A program made the position numbers and the translations under genes. A DNA stretch of 64,000 nucleotides, taken from assembly GCA_034422455.1 (NCBI GenBank), contig DAOUJQ010000013.1, positions 17,632 through 81,631 on the forward strand. The letters are read 5' to 3'. The DNA comes from Dehalococcoidia bacterium. GTDB lineage: Bacteria; Chloroflexota; Dehalococcoidia; Lucifugimonadales; UBA1127. This document shows positions 3,546-61,482 of the stretch, in pieces; the stretch's first letter is position 1; each line of letters opens with the position of its first letter. Under the pieces are notes generated by a model. It searched no databases. It saw only the letters and a list, made by a program, of their open reading frames with translations, and was not told where the DNA came from.

Positions 3546-3657
3546 GGGGTTCCTGGTTACCGGCATGCGCCGGTATGAAGGGTTGAGGGCGAATGGCTTC
3601 GGGAGCGACCCCGCCCACGCCCCGCCCCTCTGGGTTCCTGCCTGCGCAGGAACGACG
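3546..3657. repeat. Modules C + B
   Basis: GGGGTTCCTGGTTACCGGCATGCGCCGGTATGAAGGG (3546-3582) and CCCCGCCCCTCTGGGTTCCTGCCTGCGCAGGAACGACG (3620-3657). Confidence 0.85.
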
Positions 3658-6234: not shown

Positions 6235-6309
6235 TGGAGCGGGCGATGGGAGTTGAACCCACGACAACCTGCTTGGAAGGCAGGGGCTCTGCCGCTGAGC
6301 TACGCCCGC
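6235..6309 (-). tRNA. tRNA-Gly (anticodon UCC), CCA encoded
   Basis: The reverse complement reads GCGGGCGTAGCTCAGCGGCAGAGCCCCTGCCTTCCAAGCAGGTTGTCGTGGGTTCAACTCCCATCGCCCGCTCCA. It has a cloverleaf, anticodon loop CTTCCAA and T-loop GGTTCAACTCC. Confidence 0.92.
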
Positions 6310-7202: not shown

Positions 7203-7440
7203 GGGGGTATTGTAGACGGCGGAGTCGGTCGCACCCAAGCCATTCACCCTGCCACAGCCCCCTTGCCCCTGCGCCTTCGCCCTCGCTACCCTTCCCACAT
7301 GAATGCACTGCCCCGTCACCCGAAACCCATCACGGCGGCAACATTTGCGGTCATCCCCAGCTACGAGAATCGCCCGATTCGAACGCGCCGCGTTTTGGGG
7401 ACGATTCCGTATCTGCGCGCCGCCGCCTCGGATAGGAGCC

Positions 7441-7667
7441 ATTTCCCTTTTTTCGCTTTTTCTTCGTTTCCGTATCTGAGTTGTTCCCTTTCAGCTACGA
7501 GTCGATTTGGGGAATCGACCAGGTTGCAGATACGGTTCGATTTTGCGAACTTGCGCGCCGCAACAGTTGAAGACCTCGGGCTGTGGTTGCTTTGCGTGGG
7601 CGAAAGACGGACCCGTTGACCGGGCCCACCGGGCGGGCCAGGCCCCTGCCTGCGCAGGGGCGACGAG
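7441..7667. repeat. Degenerate E/F-related mosaic plus B'
   Basis: It shares GTTGCAGATAC, CTGAGTTG, GTTGAAG and GGCTGTGGTTG strings with elements E and F. B' (GGCCCCTGCCTGCGCAGGGGCGACGAG) lies at 7641-7667. Confidence 0.45.
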
Positions 7668-7713: not shown

Positions 7714-8469
7714 ATGGACCTGGTGTTTGAGCGAGGGGAAGCGTCGGCCCCCAGGGGGCACGCCCTTCTGTACTTCCGGGAGATCGGCGGCGAGGGCAAG
7801 CTGTACGCCACCTACGTCGTCGTGCTGCCCATCGCCATCGACCTGGTCAAGTACATGCCGCCCTTCCTCGCCAACCAGATCCCGCAGGTGAACGCGCAGG
7901 AGATGTCCGCCTTCGCCTTCCCTCCCATGCCGGAGGCGGCGGCGGGCCACGCGCAGCTCGAGTCGCTGGCGGCCGCCCGCGGCGACGACCTCCTCTACGG
8001 CGGCGACATCTCGCCGTCGCAGGTGCAGGACATGCTCGTGCGCGTCAACGACCTGACGCAGGAGTACGCCGAGCGCTACCACAGCACGATGCAGCACGCG
8101 GCGCCGGTGGAGGAGCCGTCTACGCCGGAGGGCCTCCCCGGCCACGGCGTCAACGAGGTGCTCTTCGAGCTGATGAGCGACCGCGACCGGCTGGGCGAGC
8201 TCTCGAAGCTCACGGGCCGGCTGCGCTTCGCCGTCGAGGGCAACGACACGCGGCAGGTGCAGGAGGCGGAGGACGAGGTGCAGGTGCTGTCGCGCTACCT
8301 GCCGCAGCGGTACCAGATCGACGACCTGCTGCGGGCCGCCAAGGACCCCACGCGCAACGGCGGGGACCTGGCACAGCTCTACCTCGAACGGTGCTACAAG
8401 CTGGCGGACGAGGACTACCCGAGCCTGCAGGGGATAGAGGAGCGGATTCGGCAGCTGGAAGCGGGGTAG
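7714..8469 (+). CDS. Hypothetical protein
   Basis: ORF 7507-8469 trimmed to ATG 7714 (MDLVFERGEASAPRGHALLYF). Codon usage resembles the neighbouring genes. I recognise no family. Confidence 0.6.
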   Translation: MDLVFERGEASAPRGHALLYFREIGGEGKLYATYVVVLPIAIDLVKYMPPFLANQIPQVNAQEMSAFAFPPMPEAAAGHAQLESLAAARGDDLLYGGDISPSQVQDMLVRVNDLTQEYAERYHSTMQHAAPVEEPSTPEGLPGHGVNEVLFELMSDRDRLGELSKLTGRLRFAVEGNDTRQVQEAEDEVQVLSRYLPQRYQIDDLLRAAKDPTRNGGDLAQLYLERCYKLADEDYPSLQGIEERIRQLEAG

Positions 8470-10070: not shown

Positions 10071-11342
10071 TCACGATTGAGGCTGGAAGCGGGCCTGCAG
10101 GTGCTCGACGTGGTGGCGCTCCTCCGTGCACTCCGCGACGGAGAGCTCCACCTGGATCGTCACGTGGTTGAGCCCGTGGCTGTACACGATCTTCCGGAGC
10201 TGCTTCAGTATGTCCTCCTGGCGTCCGGCCTGGGTGGGGCTCACGAAGACGTGGGCCGTGAAGGCGTCGTAGCCGGAGGTGATGGTCCAGGCGTGGACGT
10301 CGTGGACCAGCGTCACGCCCTGCACGTCCTCCATCTCGCTGCAGATGTTGTAGATGTCCACGGTCTCCGGCGTGCCCTCCAGCAATACCTTGAACACCCG
10401 CATGAACAGGCCCCAGGAGACCTTGAGGATGAGCAGGCCGATGAGGACGCTCATGATGGGGTCGGCGATGTACCAGGTCGAATTGTCGTCGGCGAACGCA
10501 ACGATCAGGATGCCGGAAATGATGACGCCGACGGAGCCCATGAGGTCCGCCATGACGTGCTGGAAGGCGCCCTCCACGTTGAGGCTCTCTCCCGCCGCCC
10601 GGTGCAGCACCCACGCCGCGGCGATGTTGATGATGAGGCCGATGACGCCGACGCTGAACATCAGCGGGCCCTCGACCTCCGGCGTGTCGGAGAAGCGGTG
10701 GTAGGCCTCCAGGAAGATCCACCCGGCGATGAGCCACAGGCTCACGGTGTTGGCGAGCGCGGCAAGCACCTCCGTCCGGTAGAAGCCGAAGGTCGAACCC
10801 GCCACGGCCGGCCGGTTGGCGATCCACATGGCGAACAGCGCCAGCGCGATGGAGGCGGCGTCGGTCAACATGTGCGCGGCGTCCGCCAGCAGCGCGAGGC
10901 TGCCGGAGAGGATGCCGCCGACGACCTCCACGAACATGAACCCGCCAATGAGGACGAGCGCCAAAATCAGGCTCTTCTTGCTGGCCCCGCGCAGGTCATG
11001 GGCATGGTCATGGCCGCCGTGCCCATGGTGATGGTGACCGTGGCCCGCGTGGGCGTGGTCATGCTCATCGTGGTCGTGGTCCTCATGCTCGTGGTCGTGG
11101 TCATGCTCGTGGTCGTGCTCCGTGTGGTCGTGCCCCGCGTGGTCGTGGGCATGGTCATGCTCATGGTCGTGGCCCGCGTGGTCGTGGGCATGGTCATGCT
11201 CGTGATCGTGCCCCGCGTGGTCGTGCCCTTCATGGTCGTGAGCATGGTCGTGGTCGTGCTCCGCGTGGTCATGGTCGTGGCCCGCGTGGTCGTGGGCATG
11301 GTCATGCTCGTGATCATGGTCATGCCGGTGTTCAGTCGTCAC
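10071..11342 (-). CDS. Cation diffusion facilitator (CzcD/ZitB-like) transporter with a very long His/Asp-rich N-terminus
   Basis: ORF track, 423 aa, GTG start with GGGAAGGGATGG upstream. The C-terminal ~300 aa has the CDF pattern ([16 protein letters not shown]...[13 protein letters not shown]...). The first ~115 aa are HDHxH repeats. Confidence 0.9.
11031..11340 (-). repeat. Coding tandem repeat (His/Asp tract of the CDF gene)
   Basis: The core GCGTGGTCGTGGGCATGGTCATGCT recurs at about 11137, 11176 (39-nt period, or 13 aa: [13 protein letters not shown]) and 11284. Confidence 0.7.
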
Positions 11343-11359
11343 GTCTATCCATCCCTTCC

Positions 11360-11400
11360 CACAGAAACGAAAGCCCGGCGATGCATTCTTGCGCCGGGCT
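11360..11400 (-). terminator. Hairpin plus T-run between the His-rich gene and the CDF gene (terminator/attenuator)
   Basis: AGCCCGGCG (11372-11380) pairs with CGCCGGGCT (11392-11400). On the minus strand the hairpin is followed by TTCGTTTCTG. Confidence 0.55.
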
Positions 11401-11447
11401 CCCGTTTATCTCCCGCTACGGACGTGTCTGCCTAGCTACGCCGAAGC

Positions 11448-12133: not shown

Positions 12134-13534
12134 ATGAAACAGAACAGGCCATCGTTCCGGGCCACGGCCCGATGGTCCGCGCTCCTGGCGCTTGCCGCCG
12201 CCCTCGGCGTGCTGGCGGCCGCCGCGTGCGGCCCAACCGACGACGCGACCGAGCCCTCGTCGTCACAGGAGGCCGCCGGGACCACGGAGACGTCCGGCAG
12301 CGACGCGACGACGGCCACGACGGACGCCGCCCCGAAACCGAGCGTCGAAGTCGGCCACGCCGTCGGGATGATGGCCCCGGACTTCACCGCGGAGACGGTG
12401 GCGGGCGACTCGATCACCCTGTCGGAGGTGACCGCGGGATCGCCGGTCCTCCTCTACTTCTTCACGACGTGGTGACCGACGTGCAATGCCGAGTTTCGGC
12501 ATCTGCGGTCGCTCTACCCCGGCTACCAGGACGACGTCGCCCTCATCGGCGTCGGCGTCGACCCAAGCGAGTCAGCCGACAAAATCTCGAGATGGGCCGA
12601 AAGGAACGGCTTTGATTGGCCCCTCACGGAAGCGGTCGGCAGCGCCCTGACCGACTACCGCGTGACGCAGCAATCCGCAGCCGTCGGCATCGACGCGGAC
12701 GGCATCATCGTGCTCCGCAAGAACGGCGGCCTCCAGGGCGAGGGCAAGTGGACGGAGTGGCTGGACACCCTGGGCGGTCCAAGGACTTCCGCGGAGCTGG
12801 AGGCTCCCTCCACCGCCGCCCAGGCGGCCCCGGCTCCCGTGGAAGCCGTCCCGACGCAGGCGCCAGCGCCGAGCCAGCCTTCGCCAACGGCCGCGCCCGC
12901 GCCCACAACAGCTCCGCCTCCTGCGGCTACGGCAGCTCCGGCCCCGACCACGGGCCCAGCGCCGACGGCAGCGCCTCCCCCGACGGCAATCCCAGCCCCG
13001 ACACAGGCGCCGCCTCCACCCCCAACGGCAACACCACGGCCCCGCCCGACATCGACGCCGACCCCCGCGCCAACGGCGACGCCGAACATTCCTGTCGGCC
13101 ACAACATCGGCCAGCGGGCGCCGGACTTCACCGTGACGGCGGTGAGCGGGGAGACGATCACGCTGTCCGAGGTTACGGCAACCGGCAAGCCCGTCCTCAT
13201 CTACTTCTTCGCGACATGGTGACCGACCTGCAATGCGGAGTTGCCGCATCTGCAGGGCCTCTACTCAGCCAATAGCGATGACGTGTTGATCGTGGGCATC
13301 AGCACGGACCCGGGCGACTCCGAGTCCCGCGTCCGAAGCCACGCCCGCAACAGGGGGATAACGTTCCCGATGGCGCCGCACGACCGCAGCATCGTGATCG
13401 ACTCCTACCGGGTGAGCGCGCAGTCCAGCGCCGTCGGCATCGACGCGAACGGGGTCATCCGGCTCCGCAAGGGCTACGGGCTGCAGGACGGGAACGAGTG
13501 GCGGAACTGGGTGGAGACGCTGACGGGCAGCTAG
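12134..13534 (+). CDS. Tandem two-domain TlpA/ResA-like thioredoxin-fold lipoprotein with two in-frame UGA (predicted selenocysteine) codons
   Basis: ORFs 11984-12475, 12662-13222 and 13241-13534 share one frame and are separated only by TGA at 12473 and 13220. The TGAs sit in YFFTTW-U-PTC and YFFATW-U-PTC, the redox CxxC position. A SECIS-like hairpin follows each. The signal peptide ends in a lipobox-like LAAAAC after ATG 12134. Confidence 0.75.
12482..12507 (+). promoter_or_regulatory. Bacterial SECIS-like hairpin 1
   Basis: Upper stem ATGCCGA (12486-12492) pairs with TCGGCAT (12496-12502) around loop GTT. Lower stem is TGCA/TGCG with a C bulge. The upper stem starts 10 nt after the TGA. 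Confidence 0.7.
13228..13255 (+). promoter_or_regulatory. Bacterial SECIS-like hairpin 2
   Basis: Upper stem ATGCGG (13233-13238) pairs with CCGCAT (13244-13249) around loop AGTTG. Lower stem is CTGCA/TGCAG with a C bulge. The spacer after the TGA is 10 nt. The stem differs from hairpin 1 by compensatory changes. Confidence 0.7.
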
Positions 13535-13537
13535 CCT

Positions 13538-13695
13538 CCGTTCATCCTTCGATTTCCTCTTTCGAGAACCTCAGGACAGGCTCAGGACGAACGGAAGGCT
13601 CCACACCGCCCCGCCCCTCTGGGTTCCTGCCTGCGCAGGAACGACGATTCTCCCTCCAAAACCCCTGGATACCGGCATTCGCCGGTATGAGGTGG
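13538..13695. repeat. Modules A/D hybrid + B + C
   Basis: The hybrid lies at 13538-13594, B at 13607-13646 and C (CCCCTGGATACCGGCATTCGCCGGTATGAGGTGGG) at 13661-13695. Confidence 0.85.
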
Positions 13696-15150: not shown

Positions 15151-15214
15151 CTTCCGGATACCGGCGAACGCACGTATGAGGAGTGGCCCTTCGACAGGCT
15201 CAGGGCGAACGGGG
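15151..15214. repeat. Modules C' + D
   Basis: CTTCCGGATACCGGCGAACGCACGTATGAGGAG and GGCCCTTCGACAGGCTCAGGGCGAACGGGG. Confidence 0.75.
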
Positions 15215-15446: not shown

Positions 15447-15833
15447 CTACTCGCTCACGGACTCGGGGCGGGCGCCCTCCAGGTAGTGCGTGTGCTCCGC
15501 TGAGTAGGGGTCGAGGGCAGGGAAGAAGACAAGCAGGTGCGCCTCATCGTGGCCGGTCACCGTGAAGCCGTGCGCCGCGCCGGGCGGGATGACGACGGTG
15601 TGGTCGGGCCCGACGGTGTGCGTCCGGCCGTCCAGGCTGACCTGCAGCGTCCCCTCGAGGACGACGATGAGCTCGTCCACGGTGTGGGTGTGCAGGGGCG
15701 CCCCGGCGCCGGGCTCGGCGGTGTTGATGCTGAGGGTGCTGCTGACGCCCTGCTCGTGGCCGGCGATGTCCCACTTCCGGTAGCCGGGCCGCCACGGGGT
15801 CTCGGGCGCGTGCGAGTGATCGATGATTGGCAT
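15447..15833 (-). CDS. Cupin domain protein
   Basis: ORF 15447-16079 trimmed to ATG 15833 (MPIIDHSHAPE...); the upstream part translates element E. Motifs are GAGAPLHTHTVDELIVVLEG and VVIPPGAAHGF. Confidence 0.8.
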   Translation of the reverse strand: MPIIDHSHAPETPWRPGYRKWDIAGHEQGVSSTLSINTAEPGAGAPLHTHTVDELIVVLEGTLQVSLDGRTHTVGPDHTVVIPPGAAHGFTVTGHDEAHLLVFFPALDPYSAEHTHYLEGARPESVSE

Positions 15834-15932
15834 GGTCCACGCTCCTCGCCGGGGCGGACGCGCGCCCGGCCTGGATTTGGGGGTCATTGTACCGCACGGC
15901 GTGGTGGCCGGCGGCGCGGGGGTGAGGGTAGC

Positions 15933-16324
15933 GGGGATTCGTCTTGCTTTTCGTGTTGAAGCTGAGTTGGCACGTTGCAGATACAACACGGATATTACCC
16001 GAGGGGAAGCGAATCCCGGCCCTTCGACAGGCTCAGGACAGGCTCGGCGTCCGCTTCCCCCACCCCAGCCCTCCCCCACGAGGGGGGAGGGAGAACGGGT
16101 CGCGGCGCGGCTGTGGTGTTGTGGCAGCGGTGCATGGGACGAGGGTAGCGGGCGGGACGGCTTTCGCGCGAGGGGGTGGTGGCAGGGGAGCCCCGCTGCC
16201 GCCCCTCTGGGTTCCTGCCTGCACAGGGCCCTTCGACAGGCTCAGGGTAATCGGAGGGGGCTGGAGCGGCAGCCGCCGTTGGGCGCGGGGTTTCTGGATA
16301 CCGGCATGCGCCGGTATGAGGGGG
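15933..16324 (+). repeat. Composite repeat copy 1: E - D - F - B - D - C
   Basis: E lies at 15933-16017, D-like at 16020-16049, F at 16107-16188, B at 16199-16228, D at 16229-16255 and C at 16289-16324. It is colinear with 20059-20462. Confidence 0.8.
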
Positions 16325-18740: not shown

Positions 18741-18896
18741 AGGCCACTTCCTTTCTCCGGCGAATGATTTCGGGGAGTCTAGCAACGGGGTTTTTCGCCG
18801 TCAATTTGCTTTGCGTGCGCTTCCGGAGCACTTTTGAGCAGCGGCACGGCACCGGCCATGGTCCGCTTGGCAACCATCAGCCCGGCCCGTTCCGAG

Positions 18897-18971
18897 GAAC
18901 CCTTCGACAGGCTCAGGGCGAACGGGCCCTCCCCACACGCCTGGATATCGGCATCCGCCGGTATGGCGGGG
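18897..18971. repeat. Modules D + C
   Basis: GAACCCTTCGACAGGCTCAGGGCGAACGGG and CCTGGATATCGGCATCCGCCGGTATGGCGGGG. The C-to-T change in the C stem gives a G-U pair. Confidence 0.8.
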
Positions 18972-19829: not shown

Positions 19830-19963
19830 ATACCCTCCTTATCGTCTATGCGTGGATATGTTGCAGAAGAGTATAACGAATTTCGTTACGCTGCCCAAGG
19901 GGGATTTTGGAGCAATTTCCGGCGAATGCCCGCCGGATGCTGGGCCGGCCGCCCTCCCTGTGG

Positions 19964-20003
19964 CCCCGCCCCTCTGGGTTCCTGCCTTCGCAGGAACGAC
20001 GAG
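19964..20003. repeat. Module B
   Basis: CCCCGCCCCTCTGGGTTCCTGCCTTCGCAGGAACGACGAG. Confidence 0.85.
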
Positions 20004-20058
20004 AACGGGGTTGGGGGGTGTGCGGGGCCGAATTGATTCCCGCGTCCGGTGTAGCTGC

Positions 20059-20462
20059 GGAGAATTGTTTTGTTTTTCGTGTTGAAGCTGCGTTGGCACG
20101 TTGTAGATACAAGACGAAAATTTTTTCATCCGGGGGGAACAATTCCCGGCCATCGGACATGGGGCCATACACGGCGGGGCGGTTGTGGTGTTGTGGTGGC
20201 GGTGCATGGGGTGAGGGTAGCGGAGAGGACGGCGTTCGCGCGAGGGGGTGGTGGCAGGGGGGTGCCCGTTCATCCTTCGATTTCCCTCAGGACGAACGGG
20301 GGAGGTTGGGGTCGCGAGCGTGTTCCGTCGCGGGGTTGCCCCGCCGCCGCCCTGCCCCTCTGGGCCCCTGCCTGCGCAGGGGCGACGAGAGGAGAGTTGG
20401 GCATTGCAGCCGCTGTTGGGTGCAGGGTTTCTGGATACCGGCATCCGCCGGTATGAAGGGGA
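20059..20462 (+). repeat. Composite repeat copy 2: E - F - A - B' - C
   Basis: E lies at 20059-20147, F at 20179-20261, A at 20266-20299, B' at 20355-20387 and C at 20425-20462. Confidence 0.8.
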
Positions 20463-33592: not shown

Positions 33593-34264
33593 ATGTCAGA
33601 ATGGCTGGGCCGCGAGTACAACTACGCCGTGTGGCGGCCGTCGCAGGCCGAGTTCCAGCTGCTGAAGGAGATCCACCACGCGGGCGACGTCGCCCCCGAC
33701 TTCACGCTGCCCCTCCTCGACGGCGGCGAGCTGAGCCTCTCCGACCTGAAGGGCAAGCCCGTCGTCATCGAGTTCGGCTCCATCACCTGACCGCCATGCC
33801 AGGGGGAGTTCCCCCTCATGGACCAGCTGGCCCGCGACTACGCCGACCGCGCCCACTTTCTCTTCGTCTACGTGCGTGAGGCCCACCCGGACGACTTCCC
33901 GCAGTGGCCGGAGCACAAGACCATCAAGCAGAAGTTCGAGCAGGCGCGCCTCATGCGGGAGCGCCACGGCACGCCGCGCACCATCGTGGTCGACGACGTG
34001 GAGGGCACGGTGCACCGGGCGTGGAGCGGCATGCCCAACATGAGCTGGATCATCGACCACACCGGCCGCGTGTTCTTCAAAGCGGGGTGGACGGTGGAGT
34101 CCGACCTGCGCGCCGGACTGGAGGACTACTTCGACCTGAGGGAGCGCATGCGGGAGGGCTCGACGGCGCGCTACTACAAGGAGTACATCACCGCCACGCC
34201 GCGGATGCGCGAGGGCGGTGGCATGATGCGGCCGCAGCGCGAGCCCGCGGAGACCGGCGGGTAA
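33593..34264 (+). CDS. Deiodinase-like (DIO/Prx-like thioredoxin-fold) protein with one in-frame UGA (predicted selenocysteine)
   Basis: ORFs 33374-33790 and 33818-34264 share a frame across TGA 33788-33790. ATG 33593 follows AAGGAGGG. The motif VVIEFGSIT-U-PPC ... FLFVYVREAHPDD resembles the iodothyronine deiodinase active site FGSxTUPPF. A SECIS-like hairpin follows. Confidence 0.75.
33794..33821 (+). promoter_or_regulatory. Bacterial SECIS-like hairpin 3
   Basis: Upper stem AGGGGG (33801-33806) pairs with CCCCCT (33811-33816) around loop AGTT. Lower stem is CCATG/CATGG with a CC bulge. The spacer after the TGA is 10 nt. Confidence 0.7.
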
Positions 34265-44986: not shown

Positions 44987-45008
44987 TGCGCTGTTCTCAG
45001 GCGAAAGG

Positions 45009-45400
45009 GGCCGGTGGGCCTGTAAGCCGAGTTCTGTCCCCGGCCGCCATCAGTTTACGCCCCGTCGCCGGGACTTCCTCCTCATGCGCAGCCGGGTGGC
45101 GGCCATCCCTCTAGCCCTGCCGTTGCCGGCAGGGTCGTGCGGCCAACCCGGGGGCGAGCCGGGCGCTCATGGCCCCCCTATTTGGCCTTGCTCCGGGTGG
45201 GGCTTGCCCGCCGCCGTGTCACCACGGTCGGCCGGGAGCTCTTGCCTCCCGATTTCACCCTTACTCCGGCGGACCGGAGCGGTATGTTTCTGTGGCGCTT
45301 TCCGTCGGGTTGCCCCGCCTGGGCGTTACCCAGCACCCTGCCCGGAGGAGCTCGGACTTTCCTCTCCGACGAATCGGAGCGGCCACCCGGCCCACCGGCC
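45009..45400 (-). ncRNA. rnpB: RNase P RNA (bacterial type A)
   Basis: The minus strand contains GAGAGGAAAGTCCGAGCTCC (P4 5' half), GGAGTAAGGGTGAAA and ACAGAACTCGGCTTA (P4 3' half). P1 forms between GGCCGGTGGGCC (5' end, complement of 45389-45400) and GGCCCACCGGCC (3' end, complement of 45009-45020). Confidence 0.88.
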
Positions 45401-54871: not shown

Positions 54872-54960
54872 CCATCGGCTGGGCGGCCCTTGCCGCTGTG
54901 CATTGCCTGTCAGTGCACACACGGTATTCGGCGCGGGTTGCCAATGAAGGAGAATGTGCT

Positions 54961-55335
54961 ATGGGTATGCGCTACAGTGGCGTGTCCCGGGTTCCACGCA
55001 ATCGAATACCGGACGGCCTGCATTTCCCTCTGGAAACCGAGTGTGCGTTGACATCGTTTCGGAGGGAGGTCCTGAATTCAATTTATCGTACCGCGCTCGA
55101 CCTGTCCGGAGAGCGTCTGGCATCCGCCGGAGTCTCACTGACCAGTACGCCTGACGAGGAAGAATCCTCGCACCTGGACTTGACGCTAACCCTGAACGCC
55201 GACTGGGACGCCGCGCAAGAGTTGGCTCAGGGCATCCTCGACAGGGTGAGCGACTGGTCCAAGGAGTGGTCGGAAGAAGAACGGCAAGACTACGGTCGGT
55301 GGATATACTTCGGCGTAATTCCGGCTGGCCTGTGA
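54961..55335 (+). CDS. Hypothetical protein (cassette gene 1; possible degenerate MNT-like fold)
   Basis: ORF 54898-55335 trimmed to ATG 54961, which follows GAAGGAGAA. It is AT-richer. SSHLDLTLTL loosely resembles the SDIDL strand of minimal nucleotidyltransferases. Confidence 0.5.
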   Translation: MGMRYSGVSRVPRNRIPDGLHFPLETECALTSFRREVLNSIYRTALDLSGERLASAGVSLTSTPDEEESSHLDLTLTLNADWDAAQELAQGILDRVSDWSKEWSEEERQDYGRWIYFGVIPAGL

Positions 55336-55757
55336 AGCCTATTGAGATCTATCGCCTGGGTGTGGCGGAAGCTCCGAACGCCTCTTCGGAAGCGCAGCAA
55401 CGAATGCTTGTCGGACGCGTGTACTATGGGCTGCACCACGAGGCTTGCTGCCGGTACTTCCGCGACGAGCCGACTTCCATCCCTTTGACCCGAACTAGCA
55501 GGCACATTGACCTTTGCACACGGTACAACGCCTTGAGCGACTCCAGGGCTAGGAGGGTTGGACAACTGCTCAATGACCTGCGCGTGCTTCGCTCACAAGC
55601 CGACTATGAGCTTGGGCAAATCTCGTATAGGGGCCGAACGCTGACCGGGGCTGGGTGCTTGGATACGGCGCTTCGGTTGGGACGGGAACTCTTGCAGCAT
55701 CTTGATTCTTACTTCCCCGGCGAGGCATCCGACAGCTGCAATTGCCCTACGCAGTAG
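55332..55757 (+). CDS. Hypothetical all-helical protein (cassette gene 2; possible HEPN-like)
   Basis: This lies in the frame of ORF 55266-55757. GTG 55332 overlaps the upstream stop (GTGA). LRVLRSQADYE resembles the RxxxxY/H motif of HEPN domains. Confidence 0.45.
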   Translation: MKPIEIYRLGVAEAPNASSEAQQRMLVGRVYYGLHHEACCRYFRDEPTSIPLTRTSRHIDLCTRYNALSDSRARRVGQLLNDLRVLRSQADYELGQISYRGRTLTGAGCLDTALRLGRELLQHLDSYFPGEASDSCNCPTQ

Positions 55758-55907
55758 TTCAACCAATGTTCACGGAGTAACTGCCACCACCCCCTTTCCC
55801 CGCCGCTCTCCTCCCCTCTACCCTCTTCCCATGAGCGCCAGAATCATCGGTCCCGAACAGCAGGACGCCACCCTCTTCCCCTGCTTGCTGCGGCCGCCTG
55901 ATCGGCC

Positions 55908-56025
55908 GGGAATTGTTTCTGCTGGGCGCGATTTTTTGTGTCGTAGCTGAAGTGCGCCACATCGGCTACAAGACGAAGACCAAACAGAACGCCCCTCAGC
56001 TACGAAAAACGAAGATACAATTCCC
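55908..56025 (+). repeat. Element E, third clear copy (118 nt), upstream of the ABC permease genes
   Basis: The termini GGGAATTGT (55908-55916) and ACAATTCCC (56017-56025) pair. An inner perfect 10-bp inverted repeat is TCGTAGCTGA (55941-55950) / TCAGCTACGA (55996-56005). It shares the TTTT(C/G)TGT...GCTG...ACAAGACGAA core with copies 1 and 2. Confidence 0.7.
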
Positions 56026-56072
56026 CGCTCGCCAGATAGGAGAGCGCCGGCTCTGGGCCGTCCGCTATACTG

Positions 56073-58982: not shown

Positions 58983-59107
58983 ACGCCCGACCTTGACACC
59001 CCTCCGGCGCTTGGCGAACCTATCGTCCACCGAAATGGCCTCCTGCGACCCGCGACGGGTCAGGGCCGCCGGCCTGCGGGCCTCACACCACGCAAAGGAG
59101 AGACGAC

Positions 59108-60184
59108 ATGGGCTTCGCCGTGCACGGAAACCACGGGGTGACCTACTGGGAGAAGGACCGCACCTTCAACGGCGTCACGCTCTACAGCACCTTCGGCAGC
59201 CCCAGGACCAGGCTCATCAACATGGACGGAGACGTGGTGCACGAGTGGACAGCCCCGGACCCCGCCAAGCCCTTCTTCGGCTACCTCCGGGACAACGGCA
59301 ACCTCCTCGTCCGGTGCTTCGACGGCTCGGAGCCGTACACCTACGGCGGCAACGGCGGCGTCCTCGTGGAGCTCGACTGGGACAGCAACGTCCTCTGGCG
59401 CTACGACAACCCGGTCATCCACCACGACCACATCGTCCTGCGCAACGGCAACATCATGGTCATCGGCTGGGAGCCCCTCACGTCGGAGGAGAAGGACCTG
59501 GTGCAGGGCGGCTACGAAGAGCTCGACGACGAGGGCAACCTCAAGGAGATGCTCTGCGACTTCCTCCTGGAGCTGACGCCGGACCGGCAGGTCGTCTGGG
59601 AGTGGCACGGGAAGGACAGGCTGGACCCCGCGCAGGACGTCATCTGCCACATGGACACCCGCAACGAGTGGACGCACTGCAACGCCGTCCTGGAGCTGCC
59701 GGACGGCAACATCTGCCTCAGCTTCCGGCAGACGAGCCAGCTCATCTTCATCGACAAGGCGACCGGCGATGTCTACTGGCGCTTCGGCCCCGGCGAGCTC
59801 TTCCACCAGCACAACCCCACGCTGCTGGAGAACGGCAACCTCCTGGTCTTCGACAACGGCGAGCACCGGCCGAGGCCGTCGGCAACCTCGCGCGTCGTGG
59901 AGCTTGACCCCGCCACGAAGGAGATCGTATGGGAGTACAAGGGCGACCCCACGGCCTCCTTCTACAGCACGCACATCAGCGGCGCCCAGCGCCTCCCCAA
60001 CGGCAACACCCTCATCTGCGAGGGCCGCCCCGGACGGTTCTTCGAAATAACGCCGGAAAAGGACCTCGTCTGGGAGTTCATGAACCCGGAGATCCTGGAG
60101 TTCCGCGAGGAGAAGTTCAACCGCGCCGTCTTCCGCGCCCGCCGCTACGCTGTCGACGGCCCGGAGGTGCGCGGCCGCGTATAG
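59108..60184 (+). CDS. Arylsulfotransferase (ASST)-like beta-propeller protein, paralog 1
   Basis: ORF track, 358 aa. It has repeated xNGNxLx blades (DNGNLLV, RNGNIMV, PDGNICL, ENGNLLVFDNG, PNGNTLI) and HHDH. There is no signal peptide. Confidence 0.7.
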   Translation: MGFAVHGNHGVTYWEKDRTFNGVTLYSTFGSPRTRLINMDGDVVHEWTAPDPAKPFFGYLRDNGNLLVRCFDGSEPYTYGGNGGVLVELDWDSNVLWRYDNPVIHHDHIVLRNGNIMVIGWEPLTSEEKDLVQGGYEELDDEGNLKEMLCDFLLELTPDRQVVWEWHGKDRLDPAQDVICHMDTRNEWTHCNAVLELPDGNICLSFRQTSQLIFIDKATGDVYWRFGPGELFHQHNPTLLENGNLLVFDNGEHRPRPSATSRVVELDPATKEIVWEYKGDPTASFYSTHISGAQRLPNGNTLICEGRPGRFFEITPEKDLVWEFMNPEILEFREEKFNRAVFRARRYAVDGPEVRGRV

Positions 60185-60285
60185 CCGCCCGACGCTCGCC
60201 CGTTCTTGACATTCGCATGGCCGAGGGCGCACCTTGCCGCCATTCCCCCCACCCGACCCGTGCAATACGGGGAAGGAGATCGCAC

Positions 60286-61359
60286 ATGGGCTTCCCGATC
60301 TACGGCCCGAAGGGCGTCACGCACTGGGACAGGGAGAACGCCTACCCCGGCGTCACGCTCTACACCACCATCGGCGGCGAGCGAGTGCATCTCGTCGACA
60401 TGGACGGGATGGTGGTCCACGAGTGGACGCCGCCGGAGGGGATGAAGCCCTTCTACGGCTTCCTCCGCGACAACGGCAACCTCCTCGTGCGCTGCCACAC
60501 CGGCACGGAGCCGTGGCAGATGGGCGGCTTCGCGGGCATCATGCTGGAGCAGGACTGGGACGGCAACGTCCTCTGGCGCTACGACAACCCGGTCATGCAC
60601 CATGACCACATCGTCCTGCGCAACGGCAACATCATGGTCATCGGCTGGGAGGTCATACCGCCGGAGGTGGCGGCAAGGGTGCAGGGCGGCGTGCTCTCGG
60701 CCCCGGACGGCGGTCCGGGCGAGATGCTTGGCGACTTCCTCCTGGAGCTCACGCCCGACAAGGAAGTCGTATGGGAATGGCACGGCCACGAGAAGCTGGA
60801 CCCGGCGCAGGAGGTCATCTGCCCCCGTGAGGCCCGCCACGAGTGGACCCACTGCAACGCCGTCATCGAGCTCGCCGACGGCAACATCTGCCTGAGCTTC
60901 CGGCAGACCAGCCAGGTCATCTTCATCGACAAGGCCACGGGCGACGTCACCTGGCGCTTCGGCCCCGGCGAGCTCGTCCACCAGCACAACCCCACGCAGC
61001 TCGCCAACGGCAACCTGCTCATCTTCGACAACGGCGAGCACCGCCCCGGCCCCGGCATGTACTCCCGCGTCGTGGAGGTCAACCCGGCCACGGAAGAGAT
61101 CGAGTGGCAGTTCCGCGGCGACCCGGCGCTCTCCTTCTTCAGCAACGGCATCAGCAGCGCCCAGCGTCTAGCCAACGGCAACACCTTCATCTGCGATGGC
61201 CGCACGGGCCGCCTCTTCGAGGTCACGATGGACGGCGACGTCGTCTGGGAGTTCATCAACCCGGAGGAGGCCCCCTGGCGCACCGAGAAGCGCAACCGCG
61301 CCGTCTTCCGCGCCATCCGCTACCCCGTCGACGGCCCGGAGGTGCGCGGCCGGGTGTAG
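60286..61359 (+). CDS. Arylsulfotransferase (ASST)-like beta-propeller protein, paralog 2
   Basis: This is the 3' part of ORF 59929-61359, from ATG 60286, which follows GGAAGGAGA. It is colinear with paralog 1. Confidence 0.7.
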   Translation: MGFPIYGPKGVTHWDRENAYPGVTLYTTIGGERVHLVDMDGMVVHEWTPPEGMKPFYGFLRDNGNLLVRCHTGTEPWQMGGFAGIMLEQDWDGNVLWRYDNPVMHHDHIVLRNGNIMVIGWEVIPPEVAARVQGGVLSAPDGGPGEMLGDFLLELTPDKEVVWEWHGHEKLDPAQEVICPREARHEWTHCNAVIELADGNICLSFRQTSQVIFIDKATGDVTWRFGPGELVHQHNPTQLANGNLLIFDNGEHRPGPGMYSRVVEVNPATEEIEWQFRGDPALSFFSNGISSAQRLANGNTFICDGRTGRLFEVTMDGDVVWEFINPEEAPWRTEKRNRAVFRAIRYPVDGPEVRGRV

Positions 61360-61482
61360 CTGATCCGACGCAGCAGCATCGCCTCCGTTCAACGGCCTTG
61401 ACACCCTTGGCAGGCTCGGCGAACCTAGCGCGCAATCCTTTGGCCAGGTTACGCGCACGATCGGCCCGAAAGGAGCGGACAC

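Follow-up and report, generated by a model that had tools for sequence, protein, structure and literature searches.

A promoter-like module coupled to a compound hairpin in a lineage-restricted intergenic repeat of Dehalococcoidia

Correia/NEMIS, RUP and ERIC elements are non-coding sequences of 70–300 bp whose ends pair, whose transcripts fold and which can carry outward promoters. They are listed among the palindromic repeats of bacteria (PMC3733652). Repetitive extragenic palindromes (REPs), which by definition carry the tetranucleotide GTAG (or CGTC) as a tag on one end (PMC3733652), are GTAG-tagged sequences that, together with their hairpin-forming doublets (REPINs), are mobilised by RAYT transposases (PMC3733652, PMC3116915). 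Putative mobile promoters, in turn, are upstream segments of 50–100 nt that are at least 80% identical and precede non-homologous genes within one genome (Matus-Garcia et al. 2012, PMC3488235). In uncultured Chloroflexota, repeats and regulatory RNAs are almost unexplored. Here we analyse a 64,000-nucleotide stretch of contig DAOUJQ010000013.1 from a Dehalococcoidia bacterium (hereafter the window), in which a first-pass annotation, made from the letters alone, had proposed a repeated unit, element E, as either a structured RNA or a miniature inverted-repeat transposable element (MITE). E is a real, lineage-restricted repeat family. Its helices hold in the intact copies and its sites are patchy, but neither a conserved RNA gene nor a canonical MITE emerges; instead, E is the foldback part of a larger, non-coding composite repeat of ~230–300 bp and is not free-standing, a feature that the first-pass annotation had overlooked.

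The three proposed copies of E are related far beyond chance: a covariance model (R1) scores them at 77, 88 and 60 bits, and a 35-column consensus pattern matches the window at the three claimed sites only, with 0.00 matches expected. Copy 1 lies at 15933..16019 on the plus strand (77.4 bits, E about 1e-17) and copy 2 at 20059..20149 on the same strand (88.4 bits); the core that they were said to share is 39 nt long and identical at 37 of its 39 positions. Intact copies comprise a terminal helix, P1 (up to 12–13 pairs), and an inner helix, P2 (13–17 pairs), the latter closing a conserved 13-nt loop with TGGCRC. Copy 3 (55906..56029, minus strand) had been placed in the same orientation as the other two but is inverted relative to them: the part that matches the covariance model, 55906-55994, scores 60 bits on the minus strand versus 21.6 on the plus strand, and its reverse complement scores 29.5 bits (E=3e-8) versus 12.6 with an nhmmer profile built from copies 1 and 2. 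The extra stretch of this copy, 55995-56029, holds a partial duplication of the 5' half (~35 nt) and the outer P1 arm (GGGAATTGT pairing with ACAATTCCC), and this internal duplication explains both its greater length and its perfect 10-bp inner stem. The sequence at 7441-7620, previously described as a scrambled relative, can be taken as a fourth, degenerate copy (7436..7520, minus strand), although a weak one (15 bits, E 0.23-0.85; nhmmer E=0.07-0.2) whose support comes mainly from the adjacent module at 7245-7304 described below. With filters off, the 64-kb window contains no covariance-model match above 15 bits beyond the three E copies. R1 has 11 strong matches, three in the window and the others in loci of related genomes (one in L004, two in L003, four in L016 and one in L019).

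Terminal pairings that differ between copies yet remain complementary (GGGATTCG/CGAATCCC, GAATTGTT/AACAATTC and GGGAATTGT/ACAATTCCC) are present in the sequence as well as in predicted folds, as are the inner stems, so that this part of the first-pass description stands. P1 of copy 1 pairs GGGATTCG(T)CTT with AAG-CGAATCCC, and its P2 pairs CGTGTTGAAGCTG with CAGATACAACACG around the 13-nt loop AGTTGGCACGTTG, with a predicted fold of −34.8 kcal/mol (z −2.3); in copy 2 the corresponding helices are GAGAATTGTTTT/GGAACAATTCCC and TTTTCGTGTTGAAGCTG/TAGATACAAGACGAAAA, and copy 3 folds with a z of about −4 on either strand. For copies 1 and 2, identity is 89% in the core and 67% in the arms, which are still complementary. 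In a model-fitted alignment of the 11 copies, 79.5% of cells are paired, versus 40–48% with slid partners; 12 pairs have changed on both sides, and the covariation score was reached in 5 of 500 shuffles. An unfitted MAFFT alignment gives 77.1% paired cells and 10 pairs changed on both sides, and RNAalifold, as an independent prediction, recovers P1 and P2 from the eight intact copies on either strand (−7.6 versus −5.9 kcal/mol). In the inner arms and loop it is the sequence itself that is kept, not just the pairing. The better-folding strand in 10 of 11 copies is the G/T-rich one (plus in copies 1 and 2), and on it a GTAG tetranucleotide lies 2–8 nt 5' of P1 in copy 1 (15928-15931, immediately 5' of the helix), copy 2 (20051-20054) and the copies L3B, L4B and L19. 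Copy 3 has it before the inner arm, the four L016 copies have GTGG or GTGA in its place, and L3A is without a tag.

Alignment of extended flanks revealed a second conserved block, 60–140 nt away from E and always on the same side (3' of every E). In the orientation opposite to that of copies 1 and 2, this module consists of CTG(A/C)CAC, a -35-like hexamer, N18, TAC(C/T)(C/G)T, N6 and ATG or GTG. The -35-like hexamers (TCGCGC, TTGCCC, TTGTGC, TAGCGC or TTTCCC) have the consensus T(T/C/A)(G/T)(C/T)(G/C)C. In every aligned module, ten orthologues included, the -10 hexamer keeps T1, A2 and T6, and the spacings and start triplet are likewise constant. The module of copy 1 (16109..16192, minus strand; module hidden Markov model (HMM) E=3.3e-12) has its -35 (TCGCGC) at 16171-16166, its -10 (TACCCT) at 16147-16142 and ATG at 16135-16133, and is directed at E and the cupin gene; that of copy 2 (20182..20262, minus strand; E=4e-11) has the same hexamers at 20243-20238 and 20219-20214, with ATG at 20207-20205. 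Counted by hand, the alignment of these two modules is 88% identical over 84 nt. The copy 3 module (55775..55873, plus strand; E=2.2e-14) is directed into E and then towards the permease genes (-35 TTTCCC 55795-55800; -10 TACCCT 55819-55824; ATG 55831-55833). Beside the degenerate copy, the module at 7245..7304 (plus strand; -35 TTGCCC 7263-7268; -10 TACCCT 7287-7292; ATG 7299-7301) is matched by the HMM at E=3e-5, and so is one beside the L019 copy, neither of them being in the seed alignment. The full promoter pattern occurs four times in the window, exclusively beside the four E copies, against 0.045 matches expected, a count that is partly circular as the pattern was derived from those same four copies. 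A -10 hexamer followed six bases on by a start codon is a hallmark of leaderless transcripts in GC-rich bacteria, and for this reason we read the module, from its sequence, as a putative sigma-70-like promoter with a leaderless-type start that is aimed into E.

The nearest relatives of the window are metagenome-assembled genomes (MAGs) labelled Dehalococcoidia or Chloroflexota. A genome-collection scan found relatives of the element in two Dehalococcoidia MAGs (L003 and L004, one pattern match each), both with a two-hairpin version of the unit and each at a different, unrelated site; a metagenome scan with GCTGNNNTGGCACRTTGYAGAWAC returned only low-GC (38–45%) matches, which we took as chance, and a scan of viral contigs for the element returned no match. 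Synteny around copies 1 and 2 was compared in eight loci whose Era protein is 81–90% identical (L013-L020). In six of them (L013, L014, L015, L017, L018 and L020) both sites are without a unit, L019 has one unit, at the copy-2 site, and in L016 the Era and PrpD genes are separated by four tandem units that alternate with REP clusters. This Era–PrpD spacer (L016 10972-14192) measures 3.2 kb and is built of four tandem repeats of unit plus REP cluster with a period of ~450–900 bp, across which gene callers give 'proteins' of 252–254 amino acids. At the copy-3 site, ten relatives whose permease is 93% identical (L021-L030) have kept the module, and E is there represented by vestiges only, such as GGGGATTGTTTC or GGTTGTTTTCC, with no covariance-model match in 210 kb. 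No unit lies between the binding-protein and permease genes, which are adjacent, in six other loci of lower GC (58–60%) from more distant relatives (L031-L036) whose permease is 90% identical; five of these loci span the junction.

Decay at shared sites can be followed at the copy-2 site, where E is ~40–46% identical between the window and its L019 orthologue, no better than neutral spacer, and the module is 67% identical; E cores from different genomes are 79% identical. The family is conserved and its individual loci are not, which is the signature of a propagating element. Conservation at orthologous positions, to which the first-pass annotation had tied the RNA reading beforehand, is absent both from this pair and from the ten relatives with vestiges. 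Arm sequences likewise follow the genome and not the locus: window copies 2 and 3 have AATTGTT, and L004, L016, L019 and L026 have GGTTGTT. L003, L004 and L026 contain the arm motif both as direct and as inverted copies.

We favour, tentatively and at somewhat less than an even chance, the reading that the unit, found in an uncultured, high-GC clade of Dehalococcoidia, is a lineage-specific palindromic repeat of the REPIN/MITE/ERIC kind that carries a putative promoter. This reading draws on the conservation of the family without conservation of its loci, the patchy placement, the tandem array in L016, the REP-rich and variable spacers (units lie inside GC-rich REP clusters, in the most variable intergenic regions) and the genome-specific arms. 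The unit would be a selfish, non-autonomous repeat that is copied to new intergenic sites or amplified there in tandem. In the direction of its putative promoter it runs from CTG(A/C)CAC through the promoter, the ATG or GTG and a variable spacer of 60–140 nt to E (P1, P2 and loop) and a GCTAC tag. The hairpin would serve as a cis-acting structure of which a trans-acting factor recognises one strand, either as single-stranded DNA or as RNA; we infer such recognition, of the kind known for REPs and RAYTs, from the strand-asymmetric pairing, the GTAG tag on the better-folding strand and the compensated arm variants. After insertion, the hairpin would decay neutrally, while a promoter aimed at the downstream gene would turn the unit into a mobile promoter whose promoter part tends to be kept. 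That the module outlasts a decayed E suggests that the host may retain the promoter part, in the sense of putative mobile promoters (PMC3488235).

Several points weigh against this reading. No direct repeat that could be a target-site duplication abuts E or the whole unit in any copy, neither a terminal repeat common to all copies nor inverted repeats at the ends of the whole unit were seen, and the gene tables over roughly 0.7 Mb of loci list no transposase or RAYT gene. Copy number appears low (four copies in 64 kb and none across ~330 kb from relatives), and none of the empty sites can be aligned at base resolution, as their flanks are too diverged. The unit could also have spread, with no transposition, through tandem amplification and gene conversion, and compensated arm changes can arise by quasipalindrome template switching, with no need for selection. 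When all 11 copies, including three degenerate ones, are given to RNAalifold, no consensus fold results and the helices are not recovered. The excess of G.T over A.C pairs in the stems (35 versus 18) is suggestive only, the alignment having been fitted on the G/T-rich strand and the four L016 copies being mutually related. Because no transposase, target-site duplication or high copy number was found, we do not file E as a MITE or a REPIN. A more far-reaching version, which we consider rather unlikely, is that the unit represents an undescribed, self-propagating 'promoter plus hairpin' cassette: either a strand-specific element mobilised as single-stranded DNA (a GTAG-tagged 90-nt hairpin handled by an HUH-type or other enzyme) or a new multicopy structured-RNA family homogenised within each genome. 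Either form, if true, would mean that a leaderless-type promoter has been spread to unrelated genes.

The palindromic repeat with a putative promoter that we favour shares much with REPs and REPINs. Like them, E is intergenic, is predicted to form a long imperfect hairpin in single-stranded DNA or RNA, has G.T pairs in its stems and compensated stem variants that define subfamilies, and bears, in most copies, a tag near one end that resembles GTAG and is sometimes degenerate to GTGG; it occurs in clusters and tandems that include flanking DNA, is patchy among related genomes, and its unpropagated copies decay. It differs from them in being an AT-rich, single compound hairpin of ~90 nt, with helices of 12 and 17 pairs and a conserved 13-nt loop, and not two GC-rich REPs of 20–40 nt, in its apparently low copy number against tens to hundreds of REPINs per genome, in its constant coupling to a promoter-like module, and in that the gene tables for ~0.7 Mb of loci show no RAYT gene. 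With MITEs, ERIC, Correia and RUP elements the unit has in common its size, its lack of coding capacity, pairing ends, a predicted fold in transcripts, promoter elements, unrelated neighbours, copies at non-orthologous sites and presence or absence that varies between relatives. The intact copies have inverted ends of 8–13 bp of differing sequence (GGGATTCG, GAATTGTT and GGAGGTTGTTTCC), so that, unlike in those families, the terminal repeats differ between copies of one genome; moreover, E lacks a target-site duplication, no related autonomous insertion sequence was identified, and its putative promoter sits in a separate module aimed into the hairpin instead of out of the element's end. The copy 1 and copy 2 modules, given their 88% identity over 84 nt and their positions before a cupin and an FAA-hydrolase gene, fall within the sequence-based definition of putative mobile promoters, but they lie ~300–380 nt from the gene starts, the genes have promoters of their own, and the module, whose promoter activity is putative, is tied to a structured hairpin. 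What is unusual about the unit is that an AT-rich, compound hairpin of 90 nt is invariably joined to a promoter module of the leaderless type.

Among other explanations, the main rival is a multicopy non-coding RNA, which we regard as unlikely. The module promoter would start a transcript of ~150–250 nt at the A of the ATG, with a C-rich 5' tail ahead of the E fold, and the product would be a small RNA whose conserved loop, AAYGYGCCAA, serves as seed or protein site, or else a structured 5' leader of the gene downstream. Such an arrangement would make sense of a promoter-like module that is strictly linked to E and aimed into it, with -10 positions T1, A2 and T6, the six-base spacing and the ATG or GTG invariant in the aligned copies; P1 and P2 are predicted on the module-transcribed strand too, the unit is co-oriented with the next gene at 6 of 8 sites, and tandem small-RNA gene families, which the tandem copies in L016 recall, do exist. 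However, E is not kept at orthologous sites, and the strand that the module would transcribe folds worse in 10 of 11 copies, its wobble pairs being the rarer class. A scan finds no terminator after E on that strand, no Rfam family matches, and the neighbouring genes are unrelated in function and retain conserved promoters of their own. The conservation of the inner arms and loop in sequence, and not in pairing alone, could instead mark a regulatory site acting at the DNA level, an explanation we hold to be improbable. A transcription factor or nucleoid protein that controls the module promoter or that of the neighbouring gene would then bind the nested inverted repeats (arms GGTTGTTTYC / GRAAACAACC, and TTGTAGCTG-N13-CAGMTACAA) as its operators. 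Arm motifs that are direct and inverted in L003, L004 and L026, genome-specific arms as expected under co-evolution with a protein, and the distance of ~35 nt between the ends of copies 1 and 3 and a -10-like hexamer belonging to the next gene would all fit an operator. Against this, copy 1 has arms unlike those of copies 2 and 3 in the same genome that still pair, the arm motif is found nowhere else in the window, the neighbours have no function in common, the element is missing from most orthologues, and strand-asymmetric pairing is unexpected in duplex DNA.

Two further possibilities take the ATG or GTG of the module as a start codon. A convergent sense/antisense pair, comparable to RNA-IN/RNA-OUT of IS10 or to a type I toxin-antitoxin locus, appears very improbable to us; here the module would drive a short leaderless open reading frame (ORF), and a promoter within E, on the strand of copies 1 and 2 (TTGGCA, 17–18 nt, GAtAtT), would drive an antisense RNA. 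The start triplet six bases past the -10 is indeed invariant and the scan flags the promoter within E in three copies (1, 2 and that of L004), but it leaves the four L016 copies and copy 3 unflagged, and the peptides starting at the ATG are unrelated among copies and orthologues, non-hydrophobic and of unequal length, entering E in varied frames, with one L016 copy frameshifted. A small protein encoded by a leaderless ORF through E, with peptides such as RLVSAMCQTSYKT, is largely refuted, and we give it next to no credence. One frame is open through nearly all copies and is in phase with the ATG in L003, L004 and L016, whereas its phase relative to the ATG differs in window copies 1–3 and in L019; the L016 paralogues include a frameshift and their differences are mostly non-synonymous. 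E has 44–54% GC, compared with 85–97% at the third codon positions of the genes of this genome, and a profile of the open-frame translations of E found no match among 5.8 billion proteins. Given the varying frames, the frameshifted copy and the low third-position GC, we rejected E as coding sequence.

Other familiar classes of element were also considered and rejected. Intrinsic terminators have a G+C-rich stem, a short loop and a U run directly after it; the scan calls none on P2 or P1 in any copy, and the T run that follows P2 lies 0–7 nt from an A/U-rich stem with a 13-nt loop. The sigma-54 consensus is TGGCAC-N5-TTGC, with GG and GC elements 12 nt apart, whereas the core here, TGGCAC(G/A)TTGC, has one base between the blocks. 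Integron attC sites have outer repeats of the form 5' RYYYAAC ... GTTRRRY 3' and lie at the 3' ends of gene cassettes, while the arms of E (...TTGTT 5' / AACAA... 3') have the reverse polarity and its neighbours are conserved housekeeping genes in synteny. A type I toxin-antitoxin locus was dismissed on account of the unrelated, non-hydrophobic ATG peptides. The first-pass annotation did not recognise E as a known RNA family, and E matches no family in Rfam: at gathering thresholds, Rfam 15 finds nothing in the whole window except RNase P RNA (class A, 45007-45398, minus strand) and one tRNA (6238-6309, minus strand), and at E<=10 all copies together with L003 and L004 give only sub-threshold chance matches. 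Separately, L004 7440-7486 has a sub-threshold match to the DUF3800-VI RNA (28.6 bits against a gathering score of 35), and the syntenic loci contain DUF3800 genes.

Copies 1 and 2 lie, as originally noted, upstream of minus-strand gene starts, namely those of a cupin gene (ATG at 15833) and an FAA-hydrolase gene (start 19829). Copy 3 is upstream of a peptide/nickel-type ABC permease gene, although the distance of about 50 nt first given was imprecise, the ORF beginning ~44 nt from the end of the copy at its first possible start (GTG 56073) or ~85 nt from it at the start used by homologues. Correcting the orientation of copy 3 makes the polarity relative to the adjacent gene identical in all four copies, the fourth being next to an ORF that starts at 7716. 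The FAA-hydrolase promoter contains, between its -35 (TTGGGC) and -10 (TATACT), a perfect palindrome, TAACGAAATTCGTTA (19874-19888, minus strand), which is kept in 9 of 9 genomes compared and is probably a repressor operator. We rejected E as a regulator of this gene, because every relative keeps the promoter and TAACGAAATTCGTTA, whether E is present or not. A lower-GC insert of ~0.9 kb (54898-55757) separates the solute-binding-protein gene from the copy-3 unit and holds two overlapping ORFs of 145 and 163 amino acids with no Pfam match; it is missing in L024-type relatives and replaced by a different insert in L026-type relatives.

The family thus described is a hairpin repeat that travels with a putative promoter, can be amplified in tandem and can lose its hairpin while the promoter module stays. 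If this reading is true, it would be a concrete case of a small repeat delivering promoters, in a lineage without genetics. Gene callers run 'hypothetical proteins' of 201 and roughly 250 amino acids through the units, and a covariance model for E combined with the module HMM would clean up the annotation of such MAGs, in which callers translate through units.

The window, which belongs to a metagenome scaffold of 154.7 kb (NGUY21-1_SAMN17524325 scaffold_386), has a GC content of ~68%, and its intergenic regions are packed with GC-rich REP-like palindromes of at least four abundant families, among which the E units are always found. One set occurs for example at 1750-1798, 3609-3657, 13598-13646, 16186-16234, 19953-20001 and 20339-20387, and others at 2388-2424, 16285-16321 and 20422-20458 and at 593-624, 15181-15212 and 18894-18925. 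One family (CGTC-GTTCCTGCGCAGGCAGGAAC, reverse strand) is of the CGTC-tagged type (PMC3733652). Cumulative GC skew rises until ~30 kb and then falls, and 30001-31000 has just 52.6% GC; the region ~29000-31000 could be a replication terminus (or other strand switch) or an inserted element. In the intact E copies (n=3), the G/T-rich strand is plus before ~30 kb and minus beyond it.

Three thioredoxin-fold genes on the plus strand have an in-frame TGA at the first Cys of the CxxC motif (12473-12475, 13220-13222 and 33788-33790; contexts FFTTW*PTCNAE, FFATW*PTCNAE and FGSIT*PPCQGE) and are candidates for selenocysteine (UxxC) proteins; in relatives, gene callers break the first two into short AhpC-TSA fragments. 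The minus-strand gene at 10071-11405, for a cation-efflux (CDF) transporter, contains GTGGTCGTGGTCATGC-type tandem repeats at 11014-11325 that code for a long, repetitive region rich in His, Asp and Glu. Finally, three tandem paralogous arylsulfotransferase-like genes occupy 58997-62553 with a period of ~1.18 kb and 70–86% DNA identity, and this triplet is kept in relatives.

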